Shown here piece after piece: positions 29,839 to 48,159 of a stretch of 60,797 nucleotides of DNA (the stretch's first letter is position 1; every line of letters starts with the position of its first letter). A program made the translations under genes and the position numbers. The notes under the pieces were generated by a model. It made no database searches, had not been told where the DNA came from, and was given only the letters and a program-made list of their open reading frames with translations. Source of the DNA: a virus (taxonomy: Duplodnaviria; Caudoviricetes); IMG/VR virus record IMGVR_UViG_3300037357_000143, positions 1 through 60,797 of that record. The stretch is one strand, 5' to 3'.

Positions 29839-30144
29839 ATGATTGACAAAATAAAAGATAAAATGTTCAAAAAAGAAATCAAGAAACCTATAGATGTTAC
29901 TGACGAAGAAATTAGAGAGAAAATATTTGAGCGTGCAGAACAGATAAGGGAACTCCAGGATGAAATAAACCCAGTATTAGAAGAGTATGGTGATCTCCTG
30001 CCTGGTACCATTATAGGAGCCCTAATAGGGTTAGCTTTAAGTGCAGTCGAAATAGTATATGATGAAGATGAAGAAGAAGGTAAGATGTTAAGGAGGGTAG
30101 CTATAAACGTATTTGAAATGTGGAGAGAAGAAAATGGGATTTAA
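29839..30144 (+). CDS. hypothetical protein
   Basis: first gene after TTTATATA at about 29799. Confidence 0.7.
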   Translation: MIDKIKDKMFKKEIKKPIDVTDEEIREKIFERAEQIRELQDEINPVLEEYGDLLPGTIIGALIGLALSAVEIVYDEDEEEGKMLRRVAINVFEMWREENGI

Positions 30145-31426
30145 ACAATTTATAGATGATTATATCAAACTCTCTGGAGAAATTTCGATTGATAATGAGA
30201 TGATGAATGGCACTCTTTTCTTTGCTGTGATGGGAGCTCTTTTAAATAGGAAGGGAATTACTATACAATATAATTTGAGTGAGTTTTCTCCATTAATTCA
30301 TGTCCTTCATATTCAAGATTCAAGAACTGGGAAAGGAATCTCTTTAAAAGTAATGAGGAATTTTGCAGGTAGTTTCACAGAGATGGATGAGGAAGGGGAG
30401 ATAGTAGAACTTCTTGAGACTAAAATTATAGGAGAAGCAACTGATGCTGGTCTGGTTGGGACAGTAGATCCAAATATACACCAAAGGAATTCAAATAAAG
30501 GTCTTCTTCCTGGGGATGAGGATTTCTTAAATCCAATTACTTATGGGGCATTAGCAACAAAAGATCTTATATGCTTCCCTGAAGCAGAAGAAATGTTTAT
30601 GACAGGCCCTCACAAAGAAGGAAGGATGAAAACCTTCCAACTCGCTATTGATGGAATAGTCAGTAAAACATTAGGTGCATCTACAATTGAATATGATTGC
30701 AATGCTACTATAATAGGGACTAGCTATTTTTTAAAAGAATTTGAAAAAATGGTATGGGAACGTGGAATTTTTCAACGGTTATATATTACCAATCTAGATT
30801 TAACTCCTGAACAAGTTTTCGAAAGGAATAGAAAACTTACTAAAGGGAGTGGGAATCCTTCTAAAAAAGAGGAAGTTAATGCAGATTTAGATAAACTTGC
30901 CAAAAAGATTCTTAAGGTAGTCAATAATTTTAATTCAAATACTATTCTTTCTTTGAGTGAAACAGGAGAAGATGCGTTGTTAAATATACTCGATGAACGG
31001 GAAAGCTATGTTTTAAGAGATTTTATAGGAAAAGAACTTAGACTTGTTTTGAGTTATATTTCTGCTATTAATGTTTTATATGTAAAAATGGGAGCGATTG
31101 CAGCGGTTTTGAATGGGAGAGATATAATAACCCATGAAGAAATCGAACAGGTTGATCCTTATGTTCGTTTGTATTGGAAAAGTGTAGTAATGGATATTTT
31201 ATCTCGGATCCAAAATAGGTCTCTTGAAGATATAAGGAAAAGTATATATACTATGTTGGGAAATAAAGAAAACAAGGAAGGATTGTCAGAAAAAGAACTT
31301 AAAAATACAGTAAAAATTAAGTTAAAATGCTCTAGTCGTTCCGTAAATAAAGTGGTTGATGATATGAAGAAAAATAAAGAACTTTTAACAAAAAAAGATT
31401 TTGTGAAATTAAATTCTAAAAGGTGA
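30134..31426 (+). CDS. MCM-like AAA+ ATPase, putative replicative helicase
   Basis: QDSRTGKG (Walker A), TDAGLVGTV, GALATKDLICFPE (MCM GALxLADxGxxxIDE-like), IFQR Arg finger, C-terminal wHTH-like region. Confidence 0.6.
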   Translation: MGFKQFIDDYIKLSGEISIDNEMMNGTLFFAVMGALLNRKGITIQYNLSEFSPLIHVLHIQDSRTGKGISLKVMRNFAGSFTEMDEEGEIVELLETKIIGEATDAGLVGTVDPNIHQRNSNKGLLPGDEDFLNPITYGALATKDLICFPEAEEMFMTGPHKEGRMKTFQLAIDGIVSKTLGASTIEYDCNATIIGTSYFLKEFEKMVWERGIFQRLYITNLDLTPEQVFERNRKLTKGSGNPSKKEEVNADLDKLAKKILKVVNNFNSNTILSLSETGEDALLNILDERESYVLRDFIGKELRLVLSYISAINVLYVKMGAIAAVLNGRDIITHEEIEQVDPYVRLYWKSVVMDILSRIQNRSLEDIRKSIYTMLGNKENKEGLSEKELKNTVKIKLKCSSRSVNKVVDDMKKNKELLTKKDFVKLNSKR

Positions 31427-32589
31427 AAACTTTGAACGAAAAGAAAATAAGAGAAATTATAAATGGCCTTGCTAAAAGGGCTAACATGAAAGAAGAAGAT
31501 TTGAAAAAGCTATATAAAAAATTTGAGTATGAAGAAAAAAGCTATGGTTGTCCTGACGATGAGCTAGAAGAAGCTGTCCTTGTCGATATGGAGGCATTCT
31601 TACGTAAAAAGTTCCTCGTTGGTGGAAATACAGTCGCTGTGACTGGAACTATTTTCGGCCGAAGTAATGCAATAGACCGGGCAAAAAACCTTCATGAAAA
31701 AGCTGAAAAATATATTGAAGCTGAAGGAACTGGGAAAGCAATCGAAGATGGTTATGCAAAGTATGTACCTGATCTTCCCGAAAAAACTGAAGAAAATAAA
31801 GGGGAACTCAAAAAAATTCACGAATATATTAGCGAACATGGCGAAGACAAAGCAATGGAAGATGACATTCTCCCTAAAAAACTCGTACACCTCTATACCA
31901 GCGATCAATTTAATGACAAATATAACCGAACCGGAACCCCTATCCCAGAATTCGATTGGCAGGCTGATGGTTTCGGTGTTGTAAATTATCAGCAAAAAGA
32001 AGGTGTTGACGATATTAGATTCGCAGATATTAAATTTAAAGGTGTAGCTGCGACCGGTCCCCTCCCTCTATTTAAAGAAGTTTCAATGAAAGCTTTTGTA
32101 ACCGATAAGAAAAATGAGAAAAAATATCGATTCACGGTTTCTCGTGCTCCCGAACTAATTGACGATGAGTATGATAACTTTAGAGAAATGATGCCTTTAA
32201 TCAAAAAAGCATACCCTAACCGAGTATTATCTTTTGCAGAGGTAGAAGACTTCTTTGAAGATGCTGAAAGTAAGTTTAACCTTTGGTGTCTTGTCCAAGG
32301 TGTTATCACTGGTGTTAGTGGAACTAAAAAGGGTGGTTCTATTGTAGATGTTCACGATATGGAGATGGATGTCAGTGATGGTAGTTCAGAAAGAATTATT
32401 TTTGCCAGAGAATCTGAACTTGATTTAACAGAAGGGGCACAGGGTTATTTCTTTGTTAATCCTTCTCGAGATAACGAGGGAAGAATGTCATTTTTCGGTT
32501 TAGGATATTGGGTACCAAGTTACAAACGTGTACACAAAGAATTAATTAGTGATGAAGAAACTCCAGATGTAGAAAAAGGATGGGGTTAA
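31423..32589 (+). CDS. putative ssDNA-binding (OB-fold/RPA-like) protein
   Basis: beta-rich segments, acidic tail ending in WG, position between helicase and RecA-like ATPase; inference. Confidence 0.35.
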   Translation: MKTLNEKKIREIINGLAKRANMKEEDLKKLYKKFEYEEKSYGCPDDELEEAVLVDMEAFLRKKFLVGGNTVAVTGTIFGRSNAIDRAKNLHEKAEKYIEAEGTGKAIEDGYAKYVPDLPEKTEENKGELKKIHEYISEHGEDKAMEDDILPKKLVHLYTSDQFNDKYNRTGTPIPEFDWQADGFGVVNYQQKEGVDDIRFADIKFKGVAATGPLPLFKEVSMKAFVTDKKNEKKYRFTVSRAPELIDDEYDNFREMMPLIKKAYPNRVLSFAEVEDFFEDAESKFNLWCLVQGVITGVSGTKKGGSIVDVHDMEMDVSDGSSERIIFARESELDLTEGAQGYFFVNPSRDNEGRMSFFGLGYWVPSYKRVHKELISDEETPDVEKGWG

Positions 32590-32613
32590 TCCCCTCCTTT
32601 ATAACGTGGTAGA

Positions 32614-32784
32614 ATGAAATATAAAATCACTTTTGAATTAATTACAGCTTCCAAATCTATAGAAGTAGAAGCAGAAAATTTTACTGAAGCAGAAGATAAA
32701 GCATTAGCCCAACTCTCAACCGATTCAACTCCTGATGAAGAGATGTCTGAGTGGATGGTAACAGACGTAGAAGAGGTAGAATAA
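32614..32784 (+). CDS. small acidic protein (not in ORF track)
   Basis: 56 aa; TAATG coupling to the next gene. Confidence 0.55.
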   Translation: MKYKITFELITASKSIEVEAENFTEAEDKALAQLSTDSTPDEEMSEWMVTDVEEVE

Positions 32785-33668
32785 TGGCACTTTTTAAATC
32801 CAAAACCGAAAACGATAAAATAGAAGATAAAAAAGCTGCACTTAAGCGTATGACTGAAAGATATACTAAACATGAACCATTGCCTGAACGTGCGTTTCTT
32901 TGTTCTTTATTCACTGGAGATAACGGCACAGGAAAAAGTGGTATAGCAACTTCATACTTAAATTTATTAGAACCTGACGAAAAAATATTTTATATTGATC
33001 TCGAAGTTGGGAATTATGAAAATATAATTGAATATTGGCGTGAGGCATACGAAAGAGATCAAATTATATATGAGACGTTAAAAGATCTTATCTGGGAAGA
33101 AGATTTATCAAAAGACACTCGAAAAGTTTATATCAACTATGATAAAGCAATGGAAGAACTAAGACGTATTGCTATGTGGCTAGACGAATATGCTGATAAA
33201 CTCAAAATTAGAATGGTGGCTCTTGATGGACTTAGTAAATTCAAAGATTATATAGAATACCAGATGAAACTTGAGAAAAATATAGATCTTGCTGGAGATC
33301 CTAGTAGGAAATTTTGGAGAGAAAGAAATAAAGAATTTATGGAGACCCTCGAATTATATAAAGCTCTTCCAATAGATGTAATATTGATTGGAAGTTCCAT
33401 TTTTAATAAACCTCCAGCGGAACAAAATGCTATAGACCGAGATATAAACAATATGGTATCTCAGAAGGTAGTATTTGAAAAAGATACCTCGGATGGAATT
33501 ACACAATTCACAGCACAAGTTAAAAAAAGTCGTCAGAATTCTAAGAAAAATGAAAGTAAAATCCCTTTTGGTAAAATAAATCCTAAAAAAGAGGAAGCAT
33601 TTTTAGATGGAGAAAAAGTATTTAATGCTATAATTTCAAAAAAAGATAAAGACAAATCAGGGTTTTAA
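32784..33668 (+). CDS. RecA-like P-loop ATPase (Sak4/AAA_24-like)
   Basis: GDNGTGKS, YIDLE, VALDGLS. Confidence 0.75.
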   Translation: MALFKSKTENDKIEDKKAALKRMTERYTKHEPLPERAFLCSLFTGDNGTGKSGIATSYLNLLEPDEKIFYIDLEVGNYENIIEYWREAYERDQIIYETLKDLIWEEDLSKDTRKVYINYDKAMEELRRIAMWLDEYADKLKIRMVALDGLSKFKDYIEYQMKLEKNIDLAGDPSRKFWRERNKEFMETLELYKALPIDVILIGSSIFNKPPAEQNAIDRDINNMVSQKVVFEKDTSDGITQFTAQVKKSRQNSKKNESKIPFGKINPKKEEAFLDGEKVFNAIISKKDKDKSGF

Positions 33669-33670
33669 AA

Positions 33671-34081
33671 ATGGATCTATATCTTGAGATGTGTGAGGCG
33701 GCTAGAGAACTTTTGTGGGAATTTGCTGATGAATTTTTGAACGGGGATCGTTTATATAGGAAATATTCAAGGCTTGATAATCTTGAAGGAATTTTTTATT
33801 GCGATCCCCTTTTTAGTTATGCTACAAAAGAGGATTTAGTACCCTACCCTACTCAAAATCAAATTCAGCGGTGGCTTAAAAAGTATTTACCAGAAGAGCA
33901 AGCGATGTTTTATGGATTTCAAAGTTTTTTCTTAAAACGTTGGATGATTAAAAATATTTATTCTTTTGATGAATTATGGCTCATGTTTTTTTTATATTAT
34001 GTCCACAATCTTTACTGGGATCAAGTAGATTACGAATGGAAGGAAATTCCAGAAGAGAGAAGTTATCGGATAAGTAGTTAG
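33671..34081 (+). CDS. hypothetical protein
   Basis: operon ORF; PTQNQIQ...ELWLMFF motif. Confidence 0.7.
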   Translation: MDLYLEMCEAARELLWEFADEFLNGDRLYRKYSRLDNLEGIFYCDPLFSYATKEDLVPYPTQNQIQRWLKKYLPEEQAMFYGFQSFFLKRWMIKNIYSFDELWLMFFLYYVHNLYWDQVDYEWKEIPEERSYRISS

Positions 34082-34092
34082 GAGGAAAAATT

Positions 34093-34539
34093 ATGAATAA
34101 AACGATGGATGAATTCATCCAAGAATATTTCAGGGGAAGAAAAAGTGTTCCTGTTAAAAAAATAAATTTGGATACAGGGGAAGAAGAGTATATCGATACA
34201 GAGACAGGAACTGGTAAGCTTTCAAATAATGAAACAATAGTGTTTCCATTAGGCCATGCAGATTCAAACGGTCAACAATTATACCAAGGAGATATTGTTG
34301 TTGTTGAGATAAGCGCAAAACATGGTAATTTCTGTCGGTGTGGGGTCATTAGAACTGAAGGATTTTTTGTATGTGGTATAGACTATTTTGATGATTATAA
34401 CAATATTGAAGAAGAAGGAGATTATATCGATGACCCATATATTGACAAAATAACACGGGTTGGAGATGTTTTTAAAATAAATTTACAAACTCAATTCAAT
34501 TGGAGAGACTTAATAGAAATTGAAGATGAAGAAGGATGA
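34093..34539 (+). CDS. YopX-like protein
   Basis: GHADSNGQQLYQGDIV...RVGDVF resembles the YopX core. Confidence 0.55.
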   Translation: MNKTMDEFIQEYFRGRKSVPVKKINLDTGEEEYIDTETGTGKLSNNETIVFPLGHADSNGQQLYQGDIVVVEISAKHGNFCRCGVIRTEGFFVCGIDYFDDYNNIEEEGDYIDDPYIDKITRVGDVFKINLQTQFNWRDLIEIEDEEG

Positions 34540-34543
34540 TTAG

Positions 34544-35332
34544 ATGTTAGCAATTCAAGGAAGAACTCTTGAACTAGTTTGGCCGCAAATTATCAAAGCC
34601 ATTATGAAGAAAGGAGAAGAGGTTATTGACCAACGTGGTTCAAAAACAAAAGAATTGACTAATGTGGTATGGACGATAAATGATCCTGAAGCTTCAGGAA
34701 TTCCAGAGGGGAACCCTTTAGGCCCTAATGCTCTTGAACAATATAAAAATCAATTTCTTGACCCAGAATTACATGATTTTATTTACACATACGGAAATAG
34801 ATTAAATAAATATGAGATATTTTACCCAATTTTAAGTAAAGAAAAAGAAGAACTTTTTAAAAAGATAAAAGAAATGAAGTTTCCAAAAATTGAAAAAGAC
34901 AGTAATCTTACTTCAGAAGAAAAAATAGAAAAAATTCGTGATAAAAAATTAGAAGAATTTCATAAAGTAATGTTAAATGGAAGATATTATTTTTTGAACC
35001 AAGTTAAACAAACGATTGATTATTTAAAAGAAAACCCCAATACTAGACGGGCAATTATGATAACGTGGAAATTTCCTGTAGATTTTCTTGTTGAGGAAGT
35101 ACCTTGCTTAATTATGGTTGATTTTTTAATAAGAGAAGGGAAACTTTTAACGACGGCGGTTTGGAGAAGTCATGACGCTTTCGGAGCCATGACAGCGAAT
35201 TTTATGGCACTTAGAGAATTATCAAGACATGTTGCTGAAGAAGTAGGGATTTCTGTTGGTCCTATAACTATTCAAAGTATTAGTGCTCACATTTATGAAT
35301 ACAATTTTGAAGAAGCTAAGGGTGTTTATTAA
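34544..35332 (+). CDS. thyA: thymidylate synthase, archaeal type
   Basis: YTYGNRL, TRRA, VPCL (catalytic Cys), RSHD, AN, SAHIY. Confidence 0.85.
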   Translation: MLAIQGRTLELVWPQIIKAIMKKGEEVIDQRGSKTKELTNVVWTINDPEASGIPEGNPLGPNALEQYKNQFLDPELHDFIYTYGNRLNKYEIFYPILSKEKEELFKKIKEMKFPKIEKDSNLTSEEKIEKIRDKKLEEFHKVMLNGRYYFLNQVKQTIDYLKENPNTRRAIMITWKFPVDFLVEEVPCLIMVDFLIREGKLLTTAVWRSHDAFGAMTANFMALRELSRHVAEEVGISVGPITIQSISAHIYEYNFEEAKGVY

Positions 35333-35751
35333 TGAAGACTGATATGTATTATAGAATCCATCATCCCAATGTATGGAAAAAGGAACGATTTAAACAAGCA
35401 TTAAAAACTGCACGTAAAATTAGGGAAAGGAGAAAAACTCTCGAAGATCTTCTTTCTGGGGATTGTGTCAGTAAAGCATTGGAAGCTATAGGAATTGCCA
35501 TGAGTAATCTTGGGGCAATAACAAACCAAGTTGTAGAACAAATGGCCGAAGCTGCGCGACAAATTAATGTTTCTTTTGGAATAAATCCAACCAATAAGGA
35601 GATAGAAAATCAAATAATTTATGGTACACCCTACCCTAAACAAATTCATCATTATAATCTCAAGCCTAAAACGATTGAATATTATACATCTTATTTGAAC
35701 CCTTATTTTAAAGCGGGGTGCCCAGGAGGATTAATATGGAAAAGCCAATAA
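35332..35751 (+). CDS. hypothetical protein
   Basis: TAATG coupling. Confidence 0.6.
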   Translation: MKTDMYYRIHHPNVWKKERFKQALKTARKIRERRKTLEDLLSGDCVSKALEAIGIAMSNLGAITNQVVEQMAEAARQINVSFGINPTNKEIENQIIYGTPYPKQIHHYNLKPKTIEYYTSYLNPYFKAGCPGGLIWKSQ

Positions 35752-36602
35752 TTATATGTATTGTTGGAGAGAGTGGAAGCGGTAAAACTTTAATGACCGA
35801 ATGGGTTGAATATAAATATGATATTCCAATGATTCAAAGTTATACAGATCGTTTAAAACGAGATGAAAAGGATATTGGGCATACATTCTTAACGAAAGAA
35901 GAATATGATAAATTAAAAGAAGAAGATATGATTGCTCATACCCAATGGGGAAAACATAGATATTCTTGTTTAAAACAAGATGTTAATAAGCCTATAATGA
36001 CTTATGTTCTTGATGAGCATGGTTTGTTGTATTTAAAAGAACATTTCAAATTTGATTATAAAATTGTCGCAGTTCGTGTTTATCGGGATGAAAAAGAAAG
36101 ACTCAAAACGGTAGGTGAAGAACGTGTAGGCCGTGATGAAGGTAAATTTAATTTATGGGACGATTCTTATAATTATATTCTTTATAATGATTCGACAGGA
36201 GATTTTTTCATAGAGATAGACAAAGTTATAAATAAGATATTAGGAAGATACCAGGTTTGTATATATGTAGCAGGAAAACTTAATAGTAAATCAGCTCCCT
36301 ATCTTAGGAATGTTCATAAAATGGTTAAATATGCTGAAAAAATTCGGAAATTAGGATTTTGTGTTGTAGTTCCGGGCAATGATCTAATACATGGAATAAT
36401 TTGCGGGGAACATGAATATTCTGATTATTTTAACAACAATATTGAAATTATGAAAAGATGTGATGCTTTAGCTCTTGTTGATAATTGGAAAGAAAGTGAA
36501 GGGACCAAACGAGAAATTAAAGAAGCAAAAGAACAAGGGCTTCCTGTTTTGAAGACTTTTGGAGATGTATTAAGATATAAAATATTGATGAAAATACATT
36601 AG
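35736..36602 (+). CDS. guanylate-kinase-like NMP kinase fused to a DUF4406/nucleoside deoxyribosyltransferase-like domain
   Basis: GESGSGKT, SYTDR, HTFLT; C-terminal IYVAG...CDAL...WKESEGTKREI. Confidence 0.75.
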   Translation: MEKPIIICIVGESGSGKTLMTEWVEYKYDIPMIQSYTDRLKRDEKDIGHTFLTKEEYDKLKEEDMIAHTQWGKHRYSCLKQDVNKPIMTYVLDEHGLLYLKEHFKFDYKIVAVRVYRDEKERLKTVGEERVGRDEGKFNLWDDSYNYILYNDSTGDFFIEIDKVINKILGRYQVCIYVAGKLNSKSAPYLRNVHKMVKYAEKIRKLGFCVVVPGNDLIHGIICGEHEYSDYFNNNIEIMKRCDALALVDNWKESEGTKREIKEAKEQGLPVLKTFGDVLRYKILMKIH

Positions 36603-36620
36603 AAGGAGGAAAATTTTTAA

Positions 36621-37310
36621 ATGTTATATGGCTATATTTATGTAATTCAAAATCAAATTAATGATAAATATTATGTTGGACAAACTACTCAAAGGAACCC
36701 TTTGTCCCGTTTTAAACAGCATTCTTATGTTGATGAAAATAGGTTTTCAGCTATTAATAACGCGATTAAAAAATATGGTTTTCATAATTTTACGTTCACT
36801 ATAGTTGATTCAGCAAAAAATCAAGAAAATCTTAATCTTCTTGAAGAATCATATATTTGTTTGTTTGGTAGCAAAACATCAGTTAATGGTTATAATATTC
36901 GAGATGGTGGGAGCAGAGGACGACAATCTGCTGTAACTCGAATAAAAATGTCATGGGAAAATCATCCTAACTTTCTGGGGTTGGATAGTAAAAAAATAGT
37001 TCAATTATATACTAAGGATCGATTAAGTGCTCCAAAAATTGCTAAAATACTAGGATGTCACAAAAAAACAATATATAGATATTTAGAAAAAGAAGGAATT
37101 AAACGGAGAACCAATTCAGAATCTCAGCAAACTGGTGGGTTTTTGGGTTTTATTGGTATATATTATAGAGTAAAACACATTAAACCGTGGAAAAGGGTAT
37201 GGAATTCAGTGATCCATTTAAATAATTATTGTACAAGTTTGGGTGTTTTTGAAGATCCGTTTAGTGCAGAATTAGTATATAAATTAGTTTGGACAGAAAT
37301 TTATAGTTAA
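36621..37310 (+). CDS. GIY-YIG homing endonuclease
   Basis: GYIY...YVGQT...R...E...GYN; C-terminal HTH and AP2-like segment. Confidence 0.85.
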   Translation: MLYGYIYVIQNQINDKYYVGQTTQRNPLSRFKQHSYVDENRFSAINNAIKKYGFHNFTFTIVDSAKNQENLNLLEESYICLFGSKTSVNGYNIRDGGSRGRQSAVTRIKMSWENHPNFLGLDSKKIVQLYTKDRLSAPKIAKILGCHKKTIYRYLEKEGIKRRTNSESQQTGGFLGFIGIYYRVKHIKPWKRVWNSVIHLNNYCTSLGVFEDPFSAELVYKLVWTEIYS

Positions 37311-37333
37311 AAAAATAATGAAGGTGATGTGAT

Positions 37334-37555
37334 ATGTATAATGAAAATGAAAAGAATTATGAAGGGGTTCACCGGGAGATCATGGACAAGGGTTTTCGCT
37401 TAAAGTTTCAGCGCGAACATCCAACTTACAGGCCTACTTGTTGCGGTAAAGAGGATTTTATTGTGTTATTAGACCAAAGAAAGTATGTTTGTAAGCATTG
37501 TTCCCAGATGTACGATATAGATGTGTGGATTGAGAACTTCGGGCCACAAAATTAA
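37334..37555 (+). CDS. zinc-ribbon protein
   Basis: CCG...CKHC; GGTGA RBS. Confidence 0.65.
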   Translation: MYNENEKNYEGVHREIMDKGFRLKFQREHPTYRPTCCGKEDFIVLLDQRKYVCKHCSQMYDIDVWIENFGPQN

Positions 37556-37567
37556 AGGAGATATTTT

Positions 37568-37846: not shown

Positions 37847-37849
37847 AAA

Positions 37850-39549: not shown

Positions 39550-39813
39550 AAGCCGAAGTTGAAGGTACTATTACAAAATGGCATTGGGGAGAATGGATAC
39601 GAGATTCAAATGATCCATTAAATAAATGGATAAGAATTAAAATAGTTGATAAACTTAATATAACAGGGGTTTCTTATGTCCCATAAAACTTGTGATTGTG
39701 GTGGAGAAATTTATAAGCTCAAACCTTCAGTCCAAGAAGTTTTAGGTATGAATCCAATTGAATATAAATGTAGTAAGTGTGGAAAAGTATTTATTAATTG
39801 GGTGAAAAAATAA

Positions 39814-40437: not shown

Positions 40438-40700
40438 TGGTCGGAAGCGACGACGAAGGGTTGAACCCATATCGCGGTAAAACTCCCTCTAAGAAAAACA
40501 ATGGGGAAGTAACGACTTTAAACGCTTATAAATTGGGTTGTAAGTTTTGTCCATACCTAGGATATAGATATAATTGGTTTATATGTACACATCCGGATTC
40601 AGTTAGAGATTACCCTATACGTTGGCTCAGCCACAGAGAGGAACCAAGAAAAGTTCCAAAGGCGTGCCCATTGAGAGAGGAAGAAAATGAAAAGAATTAA
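40437..40700 (+). CDS. Cys-containing hypothetical protein
   Basis: CKFCP...C...CPL. Confidence 0.6.
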   Translation: MVGSDDEGLNPYRGKTPSKKNNGEVTTLNAYKLGCKFCPYLGYRYNWFICTHPDSVRDYPIRWLSHREEPRKVPKACPLREEENEKN

Positions 40701-41355
40701 ACTGACTCAAAATCAATTCACAAAAGTTGATGATGAAGACTATGAATGGCTTATCAAATGGAATTGGCAAGCAACACAGGATAAAACTGTTAAACATAAA
40801 AAGCAATATTATGTTAGAAGACGAGAGTTTCAAAAGGTAGATCCTATACGTCCTACAATAAGAATGCATCGCGTGATTATGGAAGAGTTTTTGAGACGAA
40901 AACTAGAATCATGGGAACAAATTGATCATATTGATGGTGATGGCTTACACAATGAAAAAGAAAATTTAAGAGTTGTTAATAATAGAGAAAATTGTCAAAA
41001 TCGACATTGTTTTAAAACTTCAAAATATCCTGGAGTTTGTTGGAATAAAAGAGAACAAAAATGGCAAGCTCAAATTCGAATAAATGGGATAAATAAATAT
41101 TTAGGTTCTTTTTATAATGAAATAGAAGGTAAAAAAGCCTATGAATGGGCAAACAATGAATTAAAAAAAGATAATCCTATCCCAAATTTAAGAATAAAAA
41201 CAAGTAAATATAAAGGAGTTTTTTGGGATAAGGAAGTAAAAAAATGGAGAGTTGAAATTACTAGAAATGGGAAGCGAAAATATTTAGGACGTTTTAGTGA
41301 CGAGCAAAAAGCAGCAGAGGCTTATTTATATGAAAAGGAAAAATTATCTAGTTAA
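40687..41355 (+). CDS. HNH endonuclease with two AP2 domains
   Basis: RMHR, IDHIDGDGLHNEKENL; two TSKYxGVxW...YLGxF repeats. Confidence 0.9.
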   Translation: MKRIKLTQNQFTKVDDEDYEWLIKWNWQATQDKTVKHKKQYYVRRREFQKVDPIRPTIRMHRVIMEEFLRRKLESWEQIDHIDGDGLHNEKENLRVVNNRENCQNRHCFKTSKYPGVCWNKREQKWQAQIRINGINKYLGSFYNEIEGKKAYEWANNELKKDNPIPNLRIKTSKYKGVFWDKEVKKWRVEITRNGKRKYLGRFSDEQKAAEAYLYEKEKLSS

Positions 41356-43804
41356 TTTATGTCAACTTCGGGCAGTTAAGAAAGGGATAGATTTAGAAGA
41401 TAAAGATTATAAAAAAAGATTTAATTATGAACTTTCAGTTATAGAACAAAAAGGATATATTGATTATTTTTTAATCGTATCTAACATAATAGATGATGCT
41501 AGAGAGAAAAGAATTGAAATGGGATATGGACGTGGAAGCATTGGCGGCTCATTAATTGCCTTTCTTTTAGGGATTACTGAAATAAATCCTCTTAAATATA
41601 ATTTGCTTTTTGAACGTTTTTTAAATATTTCCAGAAATGAGCCACCAGACGCGGATATAGATTATCAAAAGTTTCGACGTGAAGAGGTAATTGAATATAC
41701 TCGAGAAAAATATGGAGAAGCAAATGTTTGCAATATTGTTAACTTTTCTAGATTTAAAGCAAAGAATACAACAAAAGATGTTTCTCGTATATTTGGAATT
41801 TCTTTTAAAGAAGTGAACAAAGTTACTGCCTTAATCGATAAAAATATGAGTTTAGATGATGCAATCAATAAAATTCCAGAAGTTAAAAATTTCTATGAAA
41901 AATATCCTGAATTAAAAGAAATTGCTTATTCTCTTGAAGGAGCTATTAGAGGTCTATCTAAGCATGCTGCCGGCATATTAATCACTAGAAGAAAAATTTC
42001 TGATTATATATCAACGGTTAAAGTAAAAGGAACAATTTGTTCTTGTTTTGATAAAGATGGGATAGAAGATTTAGGTTTACTTAAATTTGATTTTCTCGGA
42101 CTAAGAAGTTTAGATGTAATCGCTAAGACGAAAGAATTGATTGGTAAAGATATTAAGTTACCAACGGAGTTTGACGATCCTGAAGTTTATAAAATTTTTC
42201 AAAATGATGCTGCTTTTACTTTTCAATTTGATACTTTATTACTGACGAATATGGCTAGAGAGATGCAAATTTCTGATTTTAAAACCTTGTGTGCGGCCAC
42301 AGCATGTGTTAGACCAGGAATTCAAAATTCAGGATCGGCTAAAAGATATATTGATAGATTATTAGGTAGGAAACCAGTTAAATATTTACATGAATCTTTA
42401 AAACCATATTTAGAAGATACTCTTGGAGAAATATTATTTCAAGAGACGATAATGGCAATAGCTAATGAACTGGGTGGTATAGAATTATCACGTTCATATC
42501 AAATGATTAAAGCAATATCTAAGTCAAAGGGTATCGATGTTATTAATAAATATAGAAATGAGTTTGTAGAAGGATGTTTTGAAAATAAGATCCCAAAGGA
42601 TATTTCTAATAAGATATTTGACATTATTCAGGAATCAGGAGCTTATTCATTCAATAAATCGCACGCTGTGGGTTATTCGGCTCTTTCTTACATCACTGCA
42701 TGGCTTAAAACATATTATCCCAAACAATTCCTTATTGCTACTATTCATTATCCAAAAGACGGTAAAAAAGAAGAAAAAAGAGAAACACTTATTCAAGCTA
42801 TTCGAGAATTACGGAAAATTGGATATGAAGTTCAAGTCCCCGATATTAACTTGTCTATTGATTCAATCAGTATCGCAGAGAATGGAGGCATCTATATGGG
42901 ACTATCTGATGTCGCGGGTGTCGGCAAAGAAGCAGTCAAAGAAATTTTATTGTACCAACCCTACGGGTCTTTCGATGAATTCGTGGGAAAAGTACAAAAG
43001 AGAAAAGTGAAAAAGAACATCCTTCTCAACCTCATTCAAGCAGGTGCCTTCGATAAGTTCGAAAGACGTGATGAATTGTATTCGAGAATTACAGAAGAGC
43101 CATACCGAGTATGGGAAGATGTGGAAATGTTAACGCGTCAGATGACTGTTCTTGATCTTCCTTCTGCCAAACCAATTATTGATTATTATGAGAACAAATA
43201 TGAGGGTTATGTTAACATAACCCTGATTGAAGATATTGATCCAAATGTAAACGAAAAAGAAATTTGGGTGCGGGGAATTATATCTGATTATAAAACTCGA
43301 AGTATCGCGTCCAAACTTAGTGAATCTCTAGGAATCGAAAAGAAAATTGCTCTTTTTACTGTTGATGATGGGACCAAACGGTTAGAGTGTTCCGTCCCTC
43401 CTGAAATTTATACTTTTAGTAAAGAACTTTTAAATGATGGAGAACCTGTTGTATTAAAAGGGCATACTTATAATTCTAGATTGTATGTCGACGGTATCTT
43501 GAATTTGACTCAGAACAACGATGAAATCTTAGAGAAATATATTTATACTCATGGCCGAGAAAAGGAGATAGAAGATTTAGAATCGCAGCCTGGTCATAAT
43601 AATGTCAGCGTCATTGTATCATTAAATTATAGGCTCTCTAAAAACGGAAATCAGTACGTACAGATCCATGATCAAAATGGAGAAAGATTGATGTGGTTTG
43701 GCAGAGGGCAGGCCTTTAAAAATCTTAAACCAGGCAAGATAATAGTTTGGAATAAGAGTGACGATAGTAAACCATTTATTAATATGGAGAAGGTGATAAG
43801 TTGA
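41330..43804 (+). CDS. dnaE: DNA polymerase III alpha catalytic core (split DnaE, C-terminal part)
   Basis: GRGSIGGSL, FERFLN, PDADID, SKHAAG, KFDFLGL, FNKSHAVGY, OB domain; ATG 41330 preferred over GTG 41297. Confidence 0.92.
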   Translation: MKRKNYLVNLCQLRAVKKGIDLEDKDYKKRFNYELSVIEQKGYIDYFLIVSNIIDDAREKRIEMGYGRGSIGGSLIAFLLGITEINPLKYNLLFERFLNISRNEPPDADIDYQKFRREEVIEYTREKYGEANVCNIVNFSRFKAKNTTKDVSRIFGISFKEVNKVTALIDKNMSLDDAINKIPEVKNFYEKYPELKEIAYSLEGAIRGLSKHAAGILITRRKISDYISTVKVKGTICSCFDKDGIEDLGLLKFDFLGLRSLDVIAKTKELIGKDIKLPTEFDDPEVYKIFQNDAAFTFQFDTLLLTNMAREMQISDFKTLCAATACVRPGIQNSGSAKRYIDRLLGRKPVKYLHESLKPYLEDTLGEILFQETIMAIANELGGIELSRSYQMIKAISKSKGIDVINKYRNEFVEGCFENKIPKDISNKIFDIIQESGAYSFNKSHAVGYSALSYITAWLKTYYPKQFLIATIHYPKDGKKEEKRETLIQAIRELRKIGYEVQVPDINLSIDSISIAENGGIYMGLSDVAGVGKEAVKEILLYQPYGSFDEFVGKVQKRKVKKNILLNLIQAGAFDKFERRDELYSRITEEPYRVWEDVEMLTRQMTVLDLPSAKPIIDYYENKYEGYVNITLIEDIDPNVNEKEIWVRGIISDYKTRSIASKLSESLGIEKKIALFTVDDGTKRLECSVPPEIYTFSKELLNDGEPVVLKGHTYNSRLYVDGILNLTQNNDEILEKYIYTHGREKEIEDLESQPGHNNVSVIVSLNYRLSKNGNQYVQIHDQNGERLMWFGRGQAFKNLKPGKIIVWNKSDDSKPFINMEKVIS

Positions 43805-43954
43805 AAATAGAATGTTATTTTAAAGAAAATGGGGAAAAGATTCCAGTGTTCAGGCTTATGCTTGGTCCATATGGTCGTATAATAGCAGTGGAAGATTCTG
43901 AAGGTGAATTATATAATAAAGAAGATTTTGAAATAACAATAACTTGGTGATAGA

Positions 43955-44326
43955 ATGAAGTTAATATTGACAGGTGATGGATTAAAATTACCGAAAGTAG
44001 AACAAGATAAAGATGGTGCCTTAACCAAGATAATATTTGACGCGCCTTTTGTTTTAACTCAAACACCCGATAGGACAGATAGGGAAGACATTATAATTCC
44101 TGTTCGGATGCAAGAAAAGATAAAATGTGAAGGTCCTTGTGGACAGATGAGAGAAAGAAATGAATTCCAACTTTCTAAGACAAAACGGACAGGTTTACAA
44201 GGCTACTGTATCATATGTAGAAAATATACTGAAAGAGAACGTAGAAGGAAAAGAGATATGGGAGAAGATCAATATGTTCCAAAACCTTTTTACGAGTGGG
44301 TAGAAGAGGAAGGGATTGAGTTATGA
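43955..44326 (+). CDS. zinc-finger hypothetical protein
   Basis: CxxxC...GLQGYCxxC. Confidence 0.6.
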   Translation: MKLILTGDGLKLPKVEQDKDGALTKIIFDAPFVLTQTPDRTDREDIIIPVRMQEKIKCEGPCGQMRERNEFQLSKTKRTGLQGYCIICRKYTERERRRKRDMGEDQYVPKPFYEWVEEEGIEL

Positions 44327-44574
44327 GTTTTGCAAAAGAAATTAAGAGCTATCAAGAAGAATTTGGAGCAAGAGTTTTTGAATGGATAAAAGAAAATATA
44401 GACAAATTATATTCGGAAAAAATGATTAAAGCTCAAGTAATTCTTTTGACTCCTTGGGATTATAAATTTTTGAATGAGTATTCACCTCCTATAATAATTG
44501 ATGGTGAAATTAAAACAATTTTTGGTGTTAGAATTTATAAAATAGATTATTTAGATGAATCGAGGGTGTATTAA
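44323..44574 (+). CDS. hypothetical protein
   Basis: coupled operon ORF. Confidence 0.6.
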   Translation: MSFAKEIKSYQEEFGARVFEWIKENIDKLYSEKMIKAQVILLTPWDYKFLNEYSPPIIIDGEIKTIFGVRIYKIDYLDESRVY

Positions 44575-45329
44575 TGGGAAAACAAATTCGTTTGAGTAAA
44601 TCGGCAATCACAAAATTCAATGCTTGCCCTTATGATTTTTTTGTAGATTACATCCTTGGGGAAAGACATAATAGACCTGACCCTCCTAAAGGGAGTCCTA
44701 TGGCTATTGGTACAGAGGTGCACCAGATATTCGAGGACTATTATTCGCTACCGGCGGCGAAGGATGTCGAAGAACCTTATAACGAAACAATATTAGACCT
44801 TTTAATGACGCTTCCAAATGGTAAAGATCATCCTGTCCACATGATGAATTTTGCTGGATGGAATGCTAAAATCATTGAAGAAAAAGGAATCGAAAATTAT
44901 TTTCCAATCGAAACAGAAGCCAGTTATTATGACGAAGAGTTAAATGTCATTGGAATCATAGATAGGGTGGATGAGTGTTCGGATGGATTAAGAGTTATTG
45001 ATTATAAAACTGGAAAAGATAAAGTGATTCTTAGTAAAAAAAGAGATGGGACTCTTGTTGATAACCATTACTTTGAATTAGCTTTTTATGCTCTTCTTTA
45101 TGAGAGGCAAACTGGAAAAGTGGTCAATGATGCTGGTATTTATTTTTCTAAGACAAATAAGCTTAGAGTAATGCCGATCACTGATATTGATCGTGAGTAC
45201 GGATATGAAAAAATTAGAGAGTGCCGGGAGGCGATAACGCGGGATGAATATTTTACAAATCCAAATTATCTTTGTAAATGGTGTGAAAATGGGAACATTT
45301 GTGAAGAAAATACAGAGGCATGGTTTTGA
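44574..45329 (+). CDS. PD-(D/E)XK RecB-family exonuclease
   Basis: LSKS...CP, GTEVH, GIIDRVD, VIDYKTG, C-terminal CxxC...C. Confidence 0.85.
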   Translation: MGKQIRLSKSAITKFNACPYDFFVDYILGERHNRPDPPKGSPMAIGTEVHQIFEDYYSLPAAKDVEEPYNETILDLLMTLPNGKDHPVHMMNFAGWNAKIIEEKGIENYFPIETEASYYDEELNVIGIIDRVDECSDGLRVIDYKTGKDKVILSKKRDGTLVDNHYFELAFYALLYERQTGKVVNDAGIYFSKTNKLRVMPITDIDREYGYEKIRECREAITRDEYFTNPNYLCKWCENGNICEENTEAWF

Positions 45330-46321
45330 TGATTTTCGAGAATACCAAAATTTTTCAAATAGCTAATCCTGTAAGGATCACTTTTCCATTAAATGAAGAT
45401 GGAATTGAACGTGCTCAAAGATTAGTAAGGACTCTCAACGGTCGCGTTAATGTTTATAGAAGTATTTATAATTTTTGGGAAAGACCTTCCTACGATAAAG
45501 CTTTTATAGATAAAATATTTTTTGATTTCGATAAAGATGGCAACGGCACCGAATTGAAAGATACCAGAAAACTTCACTCCTATTTAATTGATAATCAAAT
45601 AACTCATGCCATTTATTTTTCAGGGCGCGGCTTTCATTTATTTGTAAAAACCAAATCTCTCGCTTCCTGGGAAATCCAGAATCCTGTAATGGCTATAAAA
45701 AATGCGTGGAATAGAATTAGTCAAGAAGCAAAAGTAAATCCTGACCCCGCTACTAAGGATATTTTAAGGATCGCACGTCTCCCCAATTCTTTAAATATGA
45801 AGAGTGGATTATTTTGTATTCCTTTGAGCTATAATGATATAGAATCATTGGAACGCGAGGAAATAGAGAAGTTGGCGGAGAGACAGAGATTCAAGAACTA
45901 TCACACAAAAGAGAAAGAGGTTCTTGATCTTACTGAGTTTGATTGTAACTCAGATGTATTTCAACCCCGAGAAATATGTAGAAATAAAGATTTAGATGAG
46001 AAACGTTTGCAAGAGCGTTTACCTGAGTGTGCTAAGGCTTGTTTGGAAGCTGAATATGCAGGATTTGAAGGGAGATTTATAACTATTTTAGCTCTTAAGG
46101 AATTAAATTATTCTGTTGGAAATACAAAAAAAATACTTGAAAAATACCTTTCTAATAATTTTAAGAAGGGACGTGATGAGAGCGAATATGACCACTGTAT
46201 CAATGAAAATCAAGTAGAATATCTTTATCAACGGGATTTTTTCTGGCCCAGTTGCGAAAAAATAAGAGCGGATGGTCTGTGCTGCGAAAATTGTGATGGA
46301 CCAACTATTTATTTAGAATAA
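45320..46321 (+). CDS. archaeo-eukaryotic primase, PriS fused to a PriL-like C-terminal domain
   Basis: FFDFD, FSGRGFH, RIARLPNSLN; C-terminal LPEC...PSCEKIR..GLC...C. Confidence 0.8.
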   Translation: MVLMIFENTKIFQIANPVRITFPLNEDGIERAQRLVRTLNGRVNVYRSIYNFWERPSYDKAFIDKIFFDFDKDGNGTELKDTRKLHSYLIDNQITHAIYFSGRGFHLFVKTKSLASWEIQNPVMAIKNAWNRISQEAKVNPDPATKDILRIARLPNSLNMKSGLFCIPLSYNDIESLEREEIEKLAERQRFKNYHTKEKEVLDLTEFDCNSDVFQPREICRNKDLDEKRLQERLPECAKACLEAEYAGFEGRFITILALKELNYSVGNTKKILEKYLSNNFKKGRDESEYDHCINENQVEYLYQRDFFWPSCEKIRADGLCCENCDGPTIYLE

Positions 46322-46355
46322 GGAGGATGTAATTATTGATAGTGAACCTAAAATT

Positions 46356-46637
46356 ATGAAGAAAAATAAAAAAAACATTACGGAATATTGTATTTTTTAC
46401 TTAACTAACATTAGTAAAGAGGCTACTTCAAAAGAAATATGTTCTCACCTCTTTGAAAAGAAATTAATTAATAGAAGTTTTTCAATTAATCCTTCAACTT
46501 TGAGTCACTATATGAAGGATAATTTATTTAAAAGAACAAAAACAAATAAAGGGGTATACAAATATCGATTAAATCACAAAAAATTGTTTAGTTTCTTTAA
46601 AAAAGATTTGGAAGGTTCTAATGGCAATAATTTGTAG
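46356..46637 (+). CDS. putative winged-helix protein
   Basis: basic; TSKEI helix and YKYRL wing. Confidence 0.5.
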   Translation: MKKNKKNITEYCIFYLTNISKEATSKEICSHLFEKKLINRSFSINPSTLSHYMKDNLFKRTKTNKGVYKYRLNHKKLFSFFKKDLEGSNGNNL

Positions 46638-46714
46638 CGGTGTATTAAGTTATATATTAACTAAGAATATTTCTTCTGCTATGAAGTCTGAAGATTTTGG
46701 TTATAAAAAGATAA

Positions 46715-47533
46715 ATGGCCGAGGGTATTGGTATGACTCATAATAATTTTAATCGTTCCTGGTTCAAAGAATTAAATACCCCTGAAAAAGTTTATTTTGC
46801 CTTTTTTATTTTAGGTGATGGGCATTTGACGAAAGAAGGATATAGAATTCAAATAAATCTTGATGATGAAGATGAATATATTTTAAAAAGATTAATCGAT
46901 GAAATCGATGGGAATTATTCTTTTTTAAGACATAATCAAACTCATTCAAACATTGTTCATCTTGATTTGAATTCAAAAGAAATGGTTAAAGATTTGGAAA
47001 ATTATGGAATGATTAAAGGCTGTAAAAAATATACTGCAAAGTGGTTAAAAATCGATAAACAATTTGAATTTCATGCTATCCGTGGAATTTTAGATAGTGA
47101 TGGCAATATTCAAGAAAGGAGAAAAAGGAAAAGACCAAGTTTTTTATTTAGAGTAATTGGAACAGAGAATATTTGTATTAATGTTAGTAAAATTTTAGGT
47201 TATAATGGAAATTATGTTTATAAAAAAGAACCTAATTCTAAGGGGGGTTTTACTTATATTTTTGTTAAAAGCTATTCCCATTATAAAGATATGAAAGAAC
47301 TTTATGATAAATTATATCCAAACAAAATGATCCCTTGTTTAGTTCGTAAACAAAAACGAATTGAAGATATTATGAATAAAGCAAAGTATTTCGAAGAAAA
47401 AGAAGATAATAAATTGAAAAATATAATTGATAATTTAATAGGAAAAGGATTAAATTATCAAGAAATTGGTAAACTATTAGATTTAGGAACAACAACAATT
47501 TGCAAGAAACATTTAAGTCAGAGGATAAAATAA
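46715..47533 (+). CDS. free-standing LAGLIDADG homing endonuclease
   Basis: YFAFFILGDG and AIRGILDSDG; C-terminal HTH. Confidence 0.85.
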   Translation: MAEGIGMTHNNFNRSWFKELNTPEKVYFAFFILGDGHLTKEGYRIQINLDDEDEYILKRLIDEIDGNYSFLRHNQTHSNIVHLDLNSKEMVKDLENYGMIKGCKKYTAKWLKIDKQFEFHAIRGILDSDGNIQERRKRKRPSFLFRVIGTENICINVSKILGYNGNYVYKKEPNSKGGFTYIFVKSYSHYKDMKELYDKLYPNKMIPCLVRKQKRIEDIMNKAKYFEEKEDNKLKNIIDNLIGKGLNYQEIGKLLDLGTTTICKKHLSQRIK

Positions 47534-48159
47534 TGTCTATTATAGTAGATGACAGAGAACCTAAGAGCGTTCAAAATGCTCTTCGTAAATATTTTCCTGA
47601 TTTGATAGTCAGACGGCTTGATTATGGAGATGTTATAGATACTGACAAAAATGCGTGTGTGGAAAGAAAAAAGGACCTCGATCTATCTTCAAGTATTGAT
47701 GATGGTCGATTGTTAAATCAAGCAGAAGGAATGAAAGAAAACTTTGAACACGCAATTATAATAAAAGTAGGAAATTATGAGAATGTTCGAAGAAATCGCT
47801 ATCATAAAAGAATGACAATTCATCGCTTTATTGGAGGAGAGACAGATTCTCTATGTTATTATGGGATCCCCATTGTCCAATGCGAGAATGAATCTCAATT
47901 TTCAAGATATGTAGATAGTTTTTTTCGAAAAATAGGGGGAAAGAGACCACAAAAAGCAATAAAAAGAAAAAATAAGAAAAAAAATGATGATAAAATTTCT
48001 TGTCTTCTGGGAATTCATATGCTTGGAGAGAAACGTGCACGTGCACTTTTAAAACAATTTACGTTCGGAGAATTATGTAAAGCAACAGAAAAAGATTTAA
48101 TGACTGTTGTAGGGATAGGGCGGAAGCATGCGAATAGAATAAAACAGGTTTTTAATTAA
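47533..48159 (+). CDS. XPF/ERCC4 (Hef-type) structure-specific nuclease
   Basis: IIVDDRE, GD, VERK..DL..SI.DGRL..Q; HhH GIG. Confidence 0.88.
   Translation: MSIIVDDREPKSVQNALRKYFPDLIVRRLDYGDVIDTDKNACVERKKDLDLSSSIDDGRLLNQAEGMKENFEHAIIIKVGNYENVRRNRYHKRMTIHRFIGGETDSLCYYGIPIVQCENESQFSRYVDSFFRKIGGKRPQKAIKRKNKKKNDDKISCLLGIHMLGEKRARALLKQFTFGELCKATEKDLMTVVGIGRKHANRIKQVFN

Follow-up and report, generated by a model that had tools for sequence, protein, structure and literature searches.

A family C DNA polymerase divided over two genes in a metagenomic virus contig related to Methanobacterium virus PhiF1

The 60,797-bp linear IMG/VR virus record IMGVR_UViG_3300037357_000143 (G000), analysed here in its entirety and called the window below, carries a DNA polymerase of the bacterial replicative family C (DnaE) that is divided over two open reading frames (ORFs) and lies amid primase, nuclease, ATPase and nucleotide-metabolism genes. 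We consider it probable that the window is a portion of a large tailed virus of Methanobacteriaceae, kin to Methanobacterium virus PhiF1, with a replication and recombination module arranged around this predicted two-subunit enzyme. CheckV estimates the completeness of the record at 39%; the window is ~30% GC, the + strand carries nearly all of its genes, composition and strand bias are even across the whole contig, and the contig has no terminal repeat. Because Pfam and PHROG scans gave no virion genes among the window ORFs, we regard the window as a fragment holding replication, nucleotide-metabolism and tRNA genes (Table 1). The replicative polymerases of bacteria share no ancestry with their archaeal and eukaryotic counterparts, and the origin of this difference is a long-standing question. 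The window, PhiF1 and related contigs would be a natural exception, with a replicase of bacterial type surrounded by archaeal-type partners, in viruses whose archaeal hosts possess histones and PCNA.

A family C polymerase encoded by two ORFs

The first of the two ORFs combines a uracil-DNA glycosylase (UDG) domain (PF03167, Pfam E 6.8e-27; NCBIfam Arch_udg E 2.8e-31) with a following PHP domain (PF02811, E 5.6e-44), and the second encodes the DnaE core, in which the palm (DNA_pol3_alpha, PF07733, E 3.7e-79), the fingers (PF17657, E 3.8e-31) and a helix-hairpin-helix region (HHH_6, PF14579, E 3e-18) are readily matched and the OB fold is weak (PF01336, E 0.0011, below the cut-off). The core ORF opens at 41297, and the ATG at 41330 is the likelier start and agrees with the starts of its relatives. 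Along the 1190 positions of phrog_405 the pair spans 36-330 and 337-1096 with no loss or gain at the break, which lies at the PHP/palm boundary, and the two ORFs end and start there with polymerase sequence only. The core retains the catalytic motifs PDADID and KFD, and across 23 aligned cores none of D118, D120, D122 and D265 varies. In six aligned N-terminal halves H212, H214, D221, D245, H246, E271, H287, C337, D404 and H406 of the PHP domain are invariant, and we take these residues to be the full complement of metal ligands seen in exonucleolytic PHP domains. NCBIfam ranks the replicative DnaE equivalogs best (PRK05673, 537 bits) and the error-prone DnaE2 lower (PRK05672, 326 bits). A preliminary description of this DNA had noted a DnaE with its three catalytic aspartates; the family assignment and the aspartates hold, the single gene does not. 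Unlike the single polypeptide by which a family C DnaE is defined, the enzyme occupies two ORFs in the window, in PhiF1 and in two contigs (L192 and L195) binned with Methanobacteriaceae genomes, and the two window proteins probably stay separate.

The UDG part has cysteines at residues 11, 14, 82 and 98 and an HPS motif, which together with a motif A of the form GE(A/G)PG we take to be the hallmarks of family-4 UDG, the cysteines being those of the Fe-S cluster. Motif A (38185-38199, residues 37-41) reads GLNPG in the window and in PhiF1 and GEAPG in L192 and in two fused relatives (P0244 and P0247). The Asn of GLNPG presumably resembles that of GINPG in MUG/TDG enzymes, and the activity of the domain in the window and PhiF1 may differ from that in the GEAPG relatives.

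The two halves lie 1.78 kb apart, and the gap is filled by five tightly chained ORFs (39546-41355), the last of which encodes an HNH-AP2 homing endonuclease with ~70% DNA matches in Methanobacteriaceae genomes. An intron or intein at the split was ruled out: no group I intron matched Rfam at the gathering score, the gap holds the five chained ORFs, and the polymerase ORFs hold no non-polymerase sequence. We read the polymerase as two separate genes between which the insertions came later. The arrangement could also be taken for a decaying, non-functional dnaE broken by the endonuclease insertion, for which the 1.78-kb separation, the homing endonuclease within it and the small ORFs at the L195 junction might speak. 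Both halves are full-length open frames that keep all catalytic and metal-binding residues, the split persists among relatives that are 32-57% identical, and the two L192 genes lie 11 nt apart with no insert, which makes decay very improbable; neither a decaying dnaE nor, in the window and the complete PhiF1 genome, a separate PolB was seen, the combination that the preliminary description had named as speaking against its hybrid replisome.

Table 1. Features of the window, in order along the DNA
Feature	Position	Strand	Evidence or remark
P-loop ATPase, candidate replicative helicase	30134-31426	+	motifs, Foldseek
Possible OB-fold single-strand DNA-binding protein	31423-32589	+	a lead only
AAA_24/KaiC-like RecA-fold ATPase	32751-33668	+	Pfam AAA_24 E 1.2e-5, just short of cut-off
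Methanogen-type thymidylate synthase ThyA	34544-35332	+	TIGR03283 thy_syn_methano 218.7 bits, cut-off 174.55
Nucleotide kinase fused to DUF4406/deoxyribosyltransferase-like domain	35718-36602	+	phrog_1815 guanylate kinase E 2.7e-25; DUF4406 E 2e-12
GIY-YIG homing endonuclease	36621-37310	+	Pfam GIY-YIG E 1.4e-8; phrog_314 E 5.8e-21
Polymerase subunit 1, family-4 UDG fused to DnaE PHP	38077-39549	+	490 amino acids; Pfam, NCBIfam
HNH-AP2 homing endonuclease, last of five gap ORFs	40687-41355	+	AP2 E 2.2e-12; HNH_3 E 5.5e-7; phrog_99 E 5.2e-43
Polymerase subunit 2, DnaE core (palm, fingers, HhH, weak OB)	41330-43804	+	Pfam, motifs
Small endonuclease VII/HNH-like protein	43955-44326	+	phrog_1035 E 3.8e-6
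PD-(D/E)XK (Cas4/RecB-like) exonuclease	44574-45329	+	Pfam PDDEXK_1 E 1e-26; syntenic with PhiF1 ORF56 and L192
PriS-like archaeo-eukaryotic primase, Cys-rich C-terminal region	45320-46321	+	profile models, motifs
LAGLIDADG homing endonuclease between primase and ERCC4 genes	46715-47533	+	phrog_4645 E 2.7e-25; LAGLIDADG_2 E 7.6e-6
ERCC4-HhH2 (XPF/Hef-type) nuclease	47500-48159	+	ERCC4 (PF02732) E 5e-13; HHH_5 E 9.5e-9
Anaerobic ribonucleotide reductase NrdD	50491-52542	+	Pfam NRDD E 8.5e-141; syntenic with PhiF1 ORF51 and L192
IS200/IS605 element, TnpA and TnpB	52760-54324	+	Y1_Tnp E 9.5e-40; OrfB/Cas12f-like domains
tRNA gene array	55236-60796	+	ARAGORN without intron search: 23 tRNAs
tRNA-Thr(UGU)	55833-55906	+	in tRNA array, beyond the 23 above
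tRNA-Ser(GCU) with intron	59056-59224	+	ARAGORN intron call; Rfam tRNA 39.9 bits over 59057-59223, full model coverage
78-nt bulge-helix-bulge intron, position 37/38 of tRNA-Ser(GCU)	59095-59172	+	fold

The module and the split are shared with PhiF1 and contigs from Methanobacteriaceae

Compared with 50,697 phage records, the core matched PhiF1 best (MK994522.1; 35% identity, E 3e-124), the other listed matches being 30-33% identical, and the host field of PhiF1 names Methanothermobacter thermautotrophicus. Eight window proteins match PhiF1 with their order kept, which made PhiF1 the sole locus with at least three shared genes among 81 loci from the matches listed; the order there is ORF60 (ATPase), ORF59 (ThyA), ORF58 (UDG-PHP), ORF57 (core), ORF56 (PD-(D/E)XK), ORF55 (PriS-like), ORF54 (ERCC4) and ORF51 (NrdD). 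None of the 80 IMG/VR loci among the matches listed (L002-L081) had three or more genes in common with the window, in a test that left out the metagenome loci L082-L161. A single-protein scan found no close relatives in IMG/VR and the JGI metagenomes, and identity in alignment scans was at most 39% among the matches listed. Proteins P0001-P0009 are 45-57% identical.

When 314 Methanobacteriaceae species genomes were searched with the core, ten had a match. Four of these have frames lacking PHP, three of them complete at ~800 amino acids and one (G038, 380 amino acids) cut by the contig end. One of the four, a 16.1-kb contig in a Methanobacteriaceae bin (G127:C145, L192), carries nine window genes in order and came top of the 33 loci tested. 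The split recurs with different spacing: ORF58 and ORF57 overlap in PhiF1, the two ORFs of L192 are free of any insert, and small ORFs lie between the halves in L195. Among 268 related proteins drawn from two large searches and sorted by BLAST, 198 have PHP without UDG, 18 have UDG and PHP, one matches the UDG query only, and 51 match neither query and are core-only, some of them fragments. The fused relatives P0244 and P0247 (~1260 amino acids) align straight across the break.

PhiF1 and the window thus have in common the ordered module from the AAA_24-like ATPase through NrdD, a DnaE split at the same point, and the lack of any PolB, PCNA or beta clamp found. They differ in that protein identity is 27-44%, the PhiF1 halves overlap by 80 nt without an insert, and the PhiF1 core has ~340 extra residues; the PhiF1 genome is 74 kb with no tRNA genes listed, whereas the virus of the window is larger (~39% complete at 60.8 kb) and has ~25 tRNAs and many homing endonucleases. 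By its shared ordered module and its place in one DnaE clade, the window belongs with an informal group of PhiF1-like methanogen viruses. A chimeric assembly of phage and archaeal DNA, conceivable for a metagenome-derived contig without terminal repeats, is refuted by synteny and has next to no likelihood left: composition and strand bias are uniform, and an isolated virus and a contig of independent origin both keep 8-9 genes in this order.

Several further observations concern these relatives. The other six matching genomes (G183, G184, G186, G194, G239 and G282; loci L184 and L186-L191) have DnaE-like frames of 655-1333 amino acids, most of full DnaE length, and are probably bacterial contamination of the bins; one of these frames groups with a Thermodesulfovibrionales DnaE in both trees described below. 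The PhiF1 core ORF57 (L001 25648-29178) is 1176 amino acids long against ~824 in the window, because ~340 extra residues (~93-440) interrupt the palm; with weak Hint matches (E ~0.009), they are probably an intein. PhiF1 (NCBI taxid 2609788) is filed under 'unclassified bacterial viruses' despite its archaeal host, which may hide it from surveys of archaeal viruses.

Of 329 genomes from the phylum, two Methanobrevibacter species genomes (G219 and G220) have a PHP-only gene (301 amino acids, no UDG) beside an 800-amino-acid core belonging to the same clade as the window core, at 9310-12621 of L193 (G220:C10) and ~9296-12595 of L194 (G219:C33). The L193 pair is flanked by cellular genes (FmdE, FecCD ABC transporter, SSF symporter, POR), the proteins bear the RefSeq name DNA polymerase III subunit alpha (WP_439780756.1, WP_432644508.1), the contigs reach 135 kb, and the catalytic aspartates are invariant in the clusters nearest these copies. 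The pair has the appearance of a viral enzyme captured by the chromosome, and such copies suggest a route by which viruses could transfer replicases between domains.

The host is assigned to Methanobacteriaceae

Several independent lines of sequence evidence identify the host as a member of Methanobacteriaceae. Besides the gene order shared with PhiF1 and with the contig from a Methanobacteriaceae bin, the TnpB of the IS200/IS605 insertion sequence (IS) is 75-79% identical to proteins of Methanobacterium sp. and Methanobacteriaceae and shares 78% identity with the copy that a Methanobacteriaceae chromosome of 2.72 Mb carries. The viral thyA has ~69-70% DNA identity to the thyA of many Methanobacteriaceae genomes, and its product scores above the cut-off of the methanogen-type model. 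The preliminary description had proposed an archaeal host and suggested that it be assigned through IS matches or spacers of clustered regularly interspaced short palindromic repeats (CRISPR); the IS led to a Methanobacteriaceae chromosome, and the shallow spacer search over positions 28001-48000 gave no spacer-like match.

The bulge-helix-bulge (BHB) tRNA intron reported in the preliminary description was located in tRNA-Ser(GCU), which is 91 nt long by ARAGORN once the 78-nt intron is removed. The fold comprises the anticodon stem, a 3-nt bulge (AU|A), a 4-bp helix (CUGC:GCGG), a second bulge (UA|A) and a GGUG:CACC helix, a geometry recovered in 119 of 200,000 shuffles of the intron. We take the canonical substrate of the archaeal splicing endonuclease to be two 3-nt bulges separated by a 4-bp helix, with flanking helices and splice sites in the bulges, and on the predicted fold the intron is a canonical BHB. 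The archaeal ribosome-binding sites and promoters that had also been claimed did not prove informative. GGTG or GGAG/GAGG occurs at -18 to -4 of 33 of the 58 ORFs compared with 10% of random positions, and TTTAWATA occurs 55 times against 39 +/- 6.7 expected, a weak enrichment; neither the Shine-Dalgarno nor the TATA-like words tell the domains apart.

These data bear on the possibility that the window derives from an ordinary bacteriophage of a low-GC bacterium, its archaeal features being coincidental. Family C polymerases, archaeo-eukaryotic primases (AEPs), ERCC4 nucleases, homing endonucleases and tRNA arrays are all known in bacteriophages, and NCBI places PhiF1 among bacterial viruses. 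Given that the nearest isolate infects Methanothermobacter, that a syntenic contig sits in a Methanobacteriaceae bin, and that the BHB intron, the ThyA score and the IS and thyA similarities all point to Methanobacteriaceae, this explanation is largely refuted and we consider it highly improbable.

As to the tRNA genes themselves, a passage of a preprint calls the 36 tRNAs of HGTV-1 the record among archaeal viruses, and ~25 tRNAs in 39% of a genome are notable for that reason. No tRNA-Val was found in the window array. A tRNA-like gene at 55459-55555 (Rfam 31.1 bits) has two acceptor-stem mismatches, and its anticodon arm includes a 35-nt stretch; with no readable anticodon or BHB, it may be a pseudogene or carry a non-canonical intron. 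Identical TnpB proteins occur on eight contigs, the longest of which (194,245 bp) may be a fuller copy of the virus or a host chromosome.

Phylogeny suggests descent from viral DnaEs

Two trees were built on the core region, one with FastTree on 110 rows chosen among the 268 proteins plus 88 locus frames after short fragments and most near-duplicates were left out, and the other a quick IQ-TREE run (LG+G4) on 60 of these rows. In both trees all five methanogen-linked rows (the window, PhiF1, G127 and the two Methanobrevibacter copies) fall in one clade, which comprises 39 of 110 rows in the first (Shimodaira-Hasegawa (SH)-like support 99) and 22 of 60 in the second (SH-like approximate likelihood ratio test, SH-aLRT, 98). 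With support of 85-91, this clade joins one of long DnaEs fused to UDG and one of viral DnaEs from IMG/VR; the bacterial-named DnaEs, eleven in one tree and eight in the other, fall outside. The best reading of these trees is that the polymerase lineage came from viral, phage-type UDG-fused DnaEs and not from an archaeal ancestor; it is a best reading and not proof, both trees being unrooted. The cross-domain acquisition of DnaE put forward in the preliminary description was thus followed up by phylogeny: the lineage does lie among viral DnaEs outside the bacterial-named ones, and a cross-domain capture, probably through viruses, fits these unrooted trees.

Companion genes

The neighbouring genes were examined with profile models, motifs and structure predictions. 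The primase matches NCBIfam PriS NF001641 partially (E 3.8e-11, 42.6 bits against a cut-off of 326), phrog_16345 'primase' (E 1.7e-10) and Pfam DNA_primase_S (PF01896; 15.3 bits against 26.8), and a profile of three sequences matches Sulfolobus PriS (PDB 1zt2_A, E 4e-4). DFD, (F)SGRGFH, D..R.AR.PN and four C-terminal cysteines are invariant in the three sequences, and DxD, sGxGxH and hD are what we take to be AEP catalytic motifs I-III. By sequence this protein is a divergent AEP and not an orthologue of cellular PriS, so the AEP primase of the preliminary description is borne out by profile models and motifs. Polyubiquitin chains that topped the PDB profile search with the primase were spurious, summing repeated weak matches each with an i-Evalue of ~0.14, and a structure model (AF2) from a two-row alignment was unusable, with a predicted local distance difference test (pLDDT) score of 41.1.

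The XPF nuclease named alongside it is likewise confirmed by its ERCC4 and HhH domains; it lies nearest to the nuclease end of euryarchaeal Hef (NF010337 E 1.5e-26; Arch_Xpf E 1.5e-13) and shows GDV...VERKKDLD, in keeping with GDxnERKx3D, which we take to be the XPF/Hef ERCC4 signature. AEP primases and ERCC4 nucleases are common in bacteriophages too, so that neither gene is 'archaeal' in itself. The two genes, parted in the window by a LAGLIDADG gene, adjoin in PhiF1 and L192. A lone perfect string resembling the PCNA-interacting peptide (PIP), QNALRKYF at residues 25-32 of the ERCC4 protein, was set aside, as we read it as part of the first helix of the nuclease domain.

The MCM-like ATPase of the preliminary description fared less well. 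QDSRTGKG, FPEAEE and GIFQR (Walker-like) are conserved in four sequences of the P-loop ATPase, which had no Pfam, PHROG or PDB sequence match and nothing to Pfam MCM (PF00493) at E <= 1. Its AF2 model has a pLDDT of 63.6, with residues 135-241 of the ATPase core below 50; the top Foldseek rows obtained with this low-confidence model were nearly all MCM (best E 1.8e-3, none at or below 1e-3, template modelling scores 0.26-0.43), followed by MoxR-like and BchI proteins. In the atlas this ATPase resembles clusters from viruses, 11% of whose members have DUF3987. The product of 31423-32589 has atlas feature matches of 0.79-0.83, below the trust level, to archaeal RPA/Ssb-like OB-fold clusters, and a homologue at the matching position in L192 (E 1e-7). 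Homologues of the AAA_24/KaiC-like ATPase stand at the equivalent position in PhiF1 (ORF60) and L192.

Other polymerases and clamps were sought by Pfam. Neither the window nor the complete PhiF1 genome (73,979 bp) matched PolB (PF00136), PCNA_N (PF00705) or the C domain of the beta clamp (PF02768), and the window had no match to Pfam MCM or DnaB_C; DnaG and a clamp loader did not turn up in the window either, in Pfam scans of ORFs of at least 90-100 amino acids, the sole search made for them. The absence from the window of a beta clamp, DnaB and DnaG, which the preliminary description had reported, agrees with these scans.

A proposed mode of replication and its alternatives

We infer that the two polymerase proteins form one enzyme, the viral replicase, with the products of neighbouring genes as its partners. 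The UDG-PHP and core proteins would associate without a covalent link, and the PHP domain of subunit 1 could serve as a proofreading 3'-5' exonuclease, because all of its metal ligands are kept. The UDG domain might remove or sense uracil ahead of synthesis; archaeal PolB and PolD sense uracil themselves and a bacterial-type enzyme is not known to, so that the fusion would fill this gap. The PriS-like primase with its Cys-rich tail would lay down primers, and the P-loop ATPase, the RecA-fold AAA_24 ATPase or both would open or load DNA. The PD-(D/E)XK and ERCC4-HhH2 nucleases could process flaps and recombination intermediates, and the nucleases together with the RecA-fold ATPase would thereby serve primer or flap removal and recombination-dependent replication. 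NrdD, ThyA and the nucleotide kinase would provide deoxynucleoside triphosphates. On a bolder reading, a lineage of Methanobacteriaceae viruses would replicate in archaeal cells by means of a family C polymerase that has two subunits, proofreads for itself and was captured from bacteriophages, acting with archaeal PCNA or without a ring clamp, with the UDG possibly a uracil sensor or processivity aid, and would have passed the enzyme to some Methanobrevibacter chromosomes. We advance this bolder reading tentatively, as one that may well turn out wrong. If it is true, viruses can move a replicase family over the divide between bacteria and archaea and into cellular genomes.

A number of points weigh against the main scheme of a viral replicase with its partners. 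The replicase role, the joining of the halves and the parts given to the partners are predictions from sequence. Glycosylase activity of the UDG domain is uncertain because motif A reads GLNPG and not the GEAPG of relatives. On its low-confidence model the P-loop ATPase is weakly assigned to the AAA+ proteins of the broad MCM/MoxR/BchI clade, as a helicase candidate and not as MCM. With only ~39% of the genome in the window, PolB, PCNA or RFC could be encoded in the unseen rest, and the lack of PolB, PCNA and beta clamp in PhiF1 rests on three Pfam models and the GenBank annotation. A simple regular expression found no clamp-binding motif of the QL[SD]LF type in the core. The fused P0244 and P0247 nest within the split subclade, so that the split arose repeatedly or was reversed and its history is not simple, and the support of 85-91 that joins the methanogen-containing clade to the viral DnaEs is unstarred in trees that are both unrooted. 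Finally, no CRISPR-spacer-like match was found when window positions 28001-48000 were compared with the 314 Methanobacteriaceae genomes in a shallow search that scored two candidates per genome, which gave gene-level matches only (66-81% identity).

The enzyme might instead be an accessory polymerase for repair, translesion synthesis or recombination-dependent replication only, bulk synthesis being left to the host PolB/PolD or to a polymerase in the unseen 61% of the genome. The low completeness of the window would allow this, and so would the abundance of recombination and repair genes in the module (the RecA-fold AAA_24 ATPase, PD-(D/E)XK, ERCC4 and UDG), the failure to find a clamp, a clamp loader or a firm helicase in the window, and the copy on the chromosome of Methanobrevibacter, an archaeon with replicases of its own, where the enzyme can evidently exist as an extra. 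A replicase is favoured by the complete PhiF1 genome with no PolB match, by the primase, NrdD and ThyA in the module, which are typical of self-replicating viruses, and by the replicative DnaE models outscoring DnaE2, and we judge an accessory role unlikely.

Comparison with known systems

The DnaEs of bacteriophages (PHROG 405; Streptomyces phage Coruscant, Bacillus and Staphylococcus phages) have the same set of domains, are 30-33% identical to the window enzyme and include its nearest outgroups, the viral DnaEs. They differ in that the named phages have bacterial hosts and that 78 IMG/VR frames measure 758-1154 amino acids, most of them ~1090-1150, the length of an unsplit PHP plus core, with some shorter ones at contig ends. 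In bacterial Pol III alpha (DnaE1) the PHP exonuclease may be active; such activity is reported for the DnaE1 of Mycobacterium tuberculosis. It shares with the window enzyme the PHP, palm, fingers and HhH, the full PHP ligands and a best match to the replicative DnaE models; it differs in being one polypeptide, not known to be fused to a UDG, whose partners are a beta clamp, a clamp loader, DnaB and DnaG; no such partner was found here. In cyanobacteria DnaE is split over two genes and the halves are joined through a split intein. The likeness lies in a family C polymerase made from two genes, and the difference in the intein pieces, which there splice the halves into one protein, whereas the window ORFs, split at the PHP/palm boundary, carry no extra sequence.

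A different parallel is offered by the polymerase holoenzyme of poxviruses, in which, according to a passage of a 2016 survey of double-stranded DNA virus replication, the UDG D4 is part of the processivity factor (PMC4889955). By analogy only, a UDG would in both cases be physically tied to a viral replicase without a ring clamp of its own; the poxvirus enzyme is an unrelated family B polymerase, and its UDG is a separate protein bound through A20.

In the same survey C-family polymerases are described as confined to bacteriophages (PMC4889955). The passages of papers citing PhiF1 mention only its isolation in 1993 (PMC9796341, PMC8540584), and the full-text literature within our scope contained no discussion of an archaeal-virus family C polymerase or of PhiF1 genome content; the methanogen-virus survey of Medvedeva et al. 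2023 and its supplements lay outside that scope and may describe it. The GenBank record of PhiF1 labels ORF57 and ORF58 as DnaE-superfamily, ORF58 with a UDG domain, so that the split DnaE is already annotated and the window is a further member of a barely described kind; the value of the finding is tempered by this precedent. Because PhiF1 and its host are both cultured, the function of a family C enzyme in an archaeal cell, the clamp that it uses and the importance of the split can be tested at the bench.

Homing endonucleases and other genes

Genes resembling homing endonucleases are unusually numerous in the window (GIY-YIG, HNH-AP2, two LAGLIDADG and several HNH/endonuclease VII-like), those not in Table 1 lying at 18472-18849, 28462-29301 (- strand), 49835-50521 and 54383-54862. 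Two of the insertions, at the DnaE junction and at the primase/ERCC4 boundary, fall exactly at borders between genes that are adjacent in PhiF1 and L192. Elsewhere in the window, a radical SAM/SPASM protein (16874-17944), an SNF2-family helicase of 597 amino acids (19434-21227), an RlaP-type nucleotidyltransferase (24287-25099) and a PcfJ-like protein (25285-26400) are encoded.

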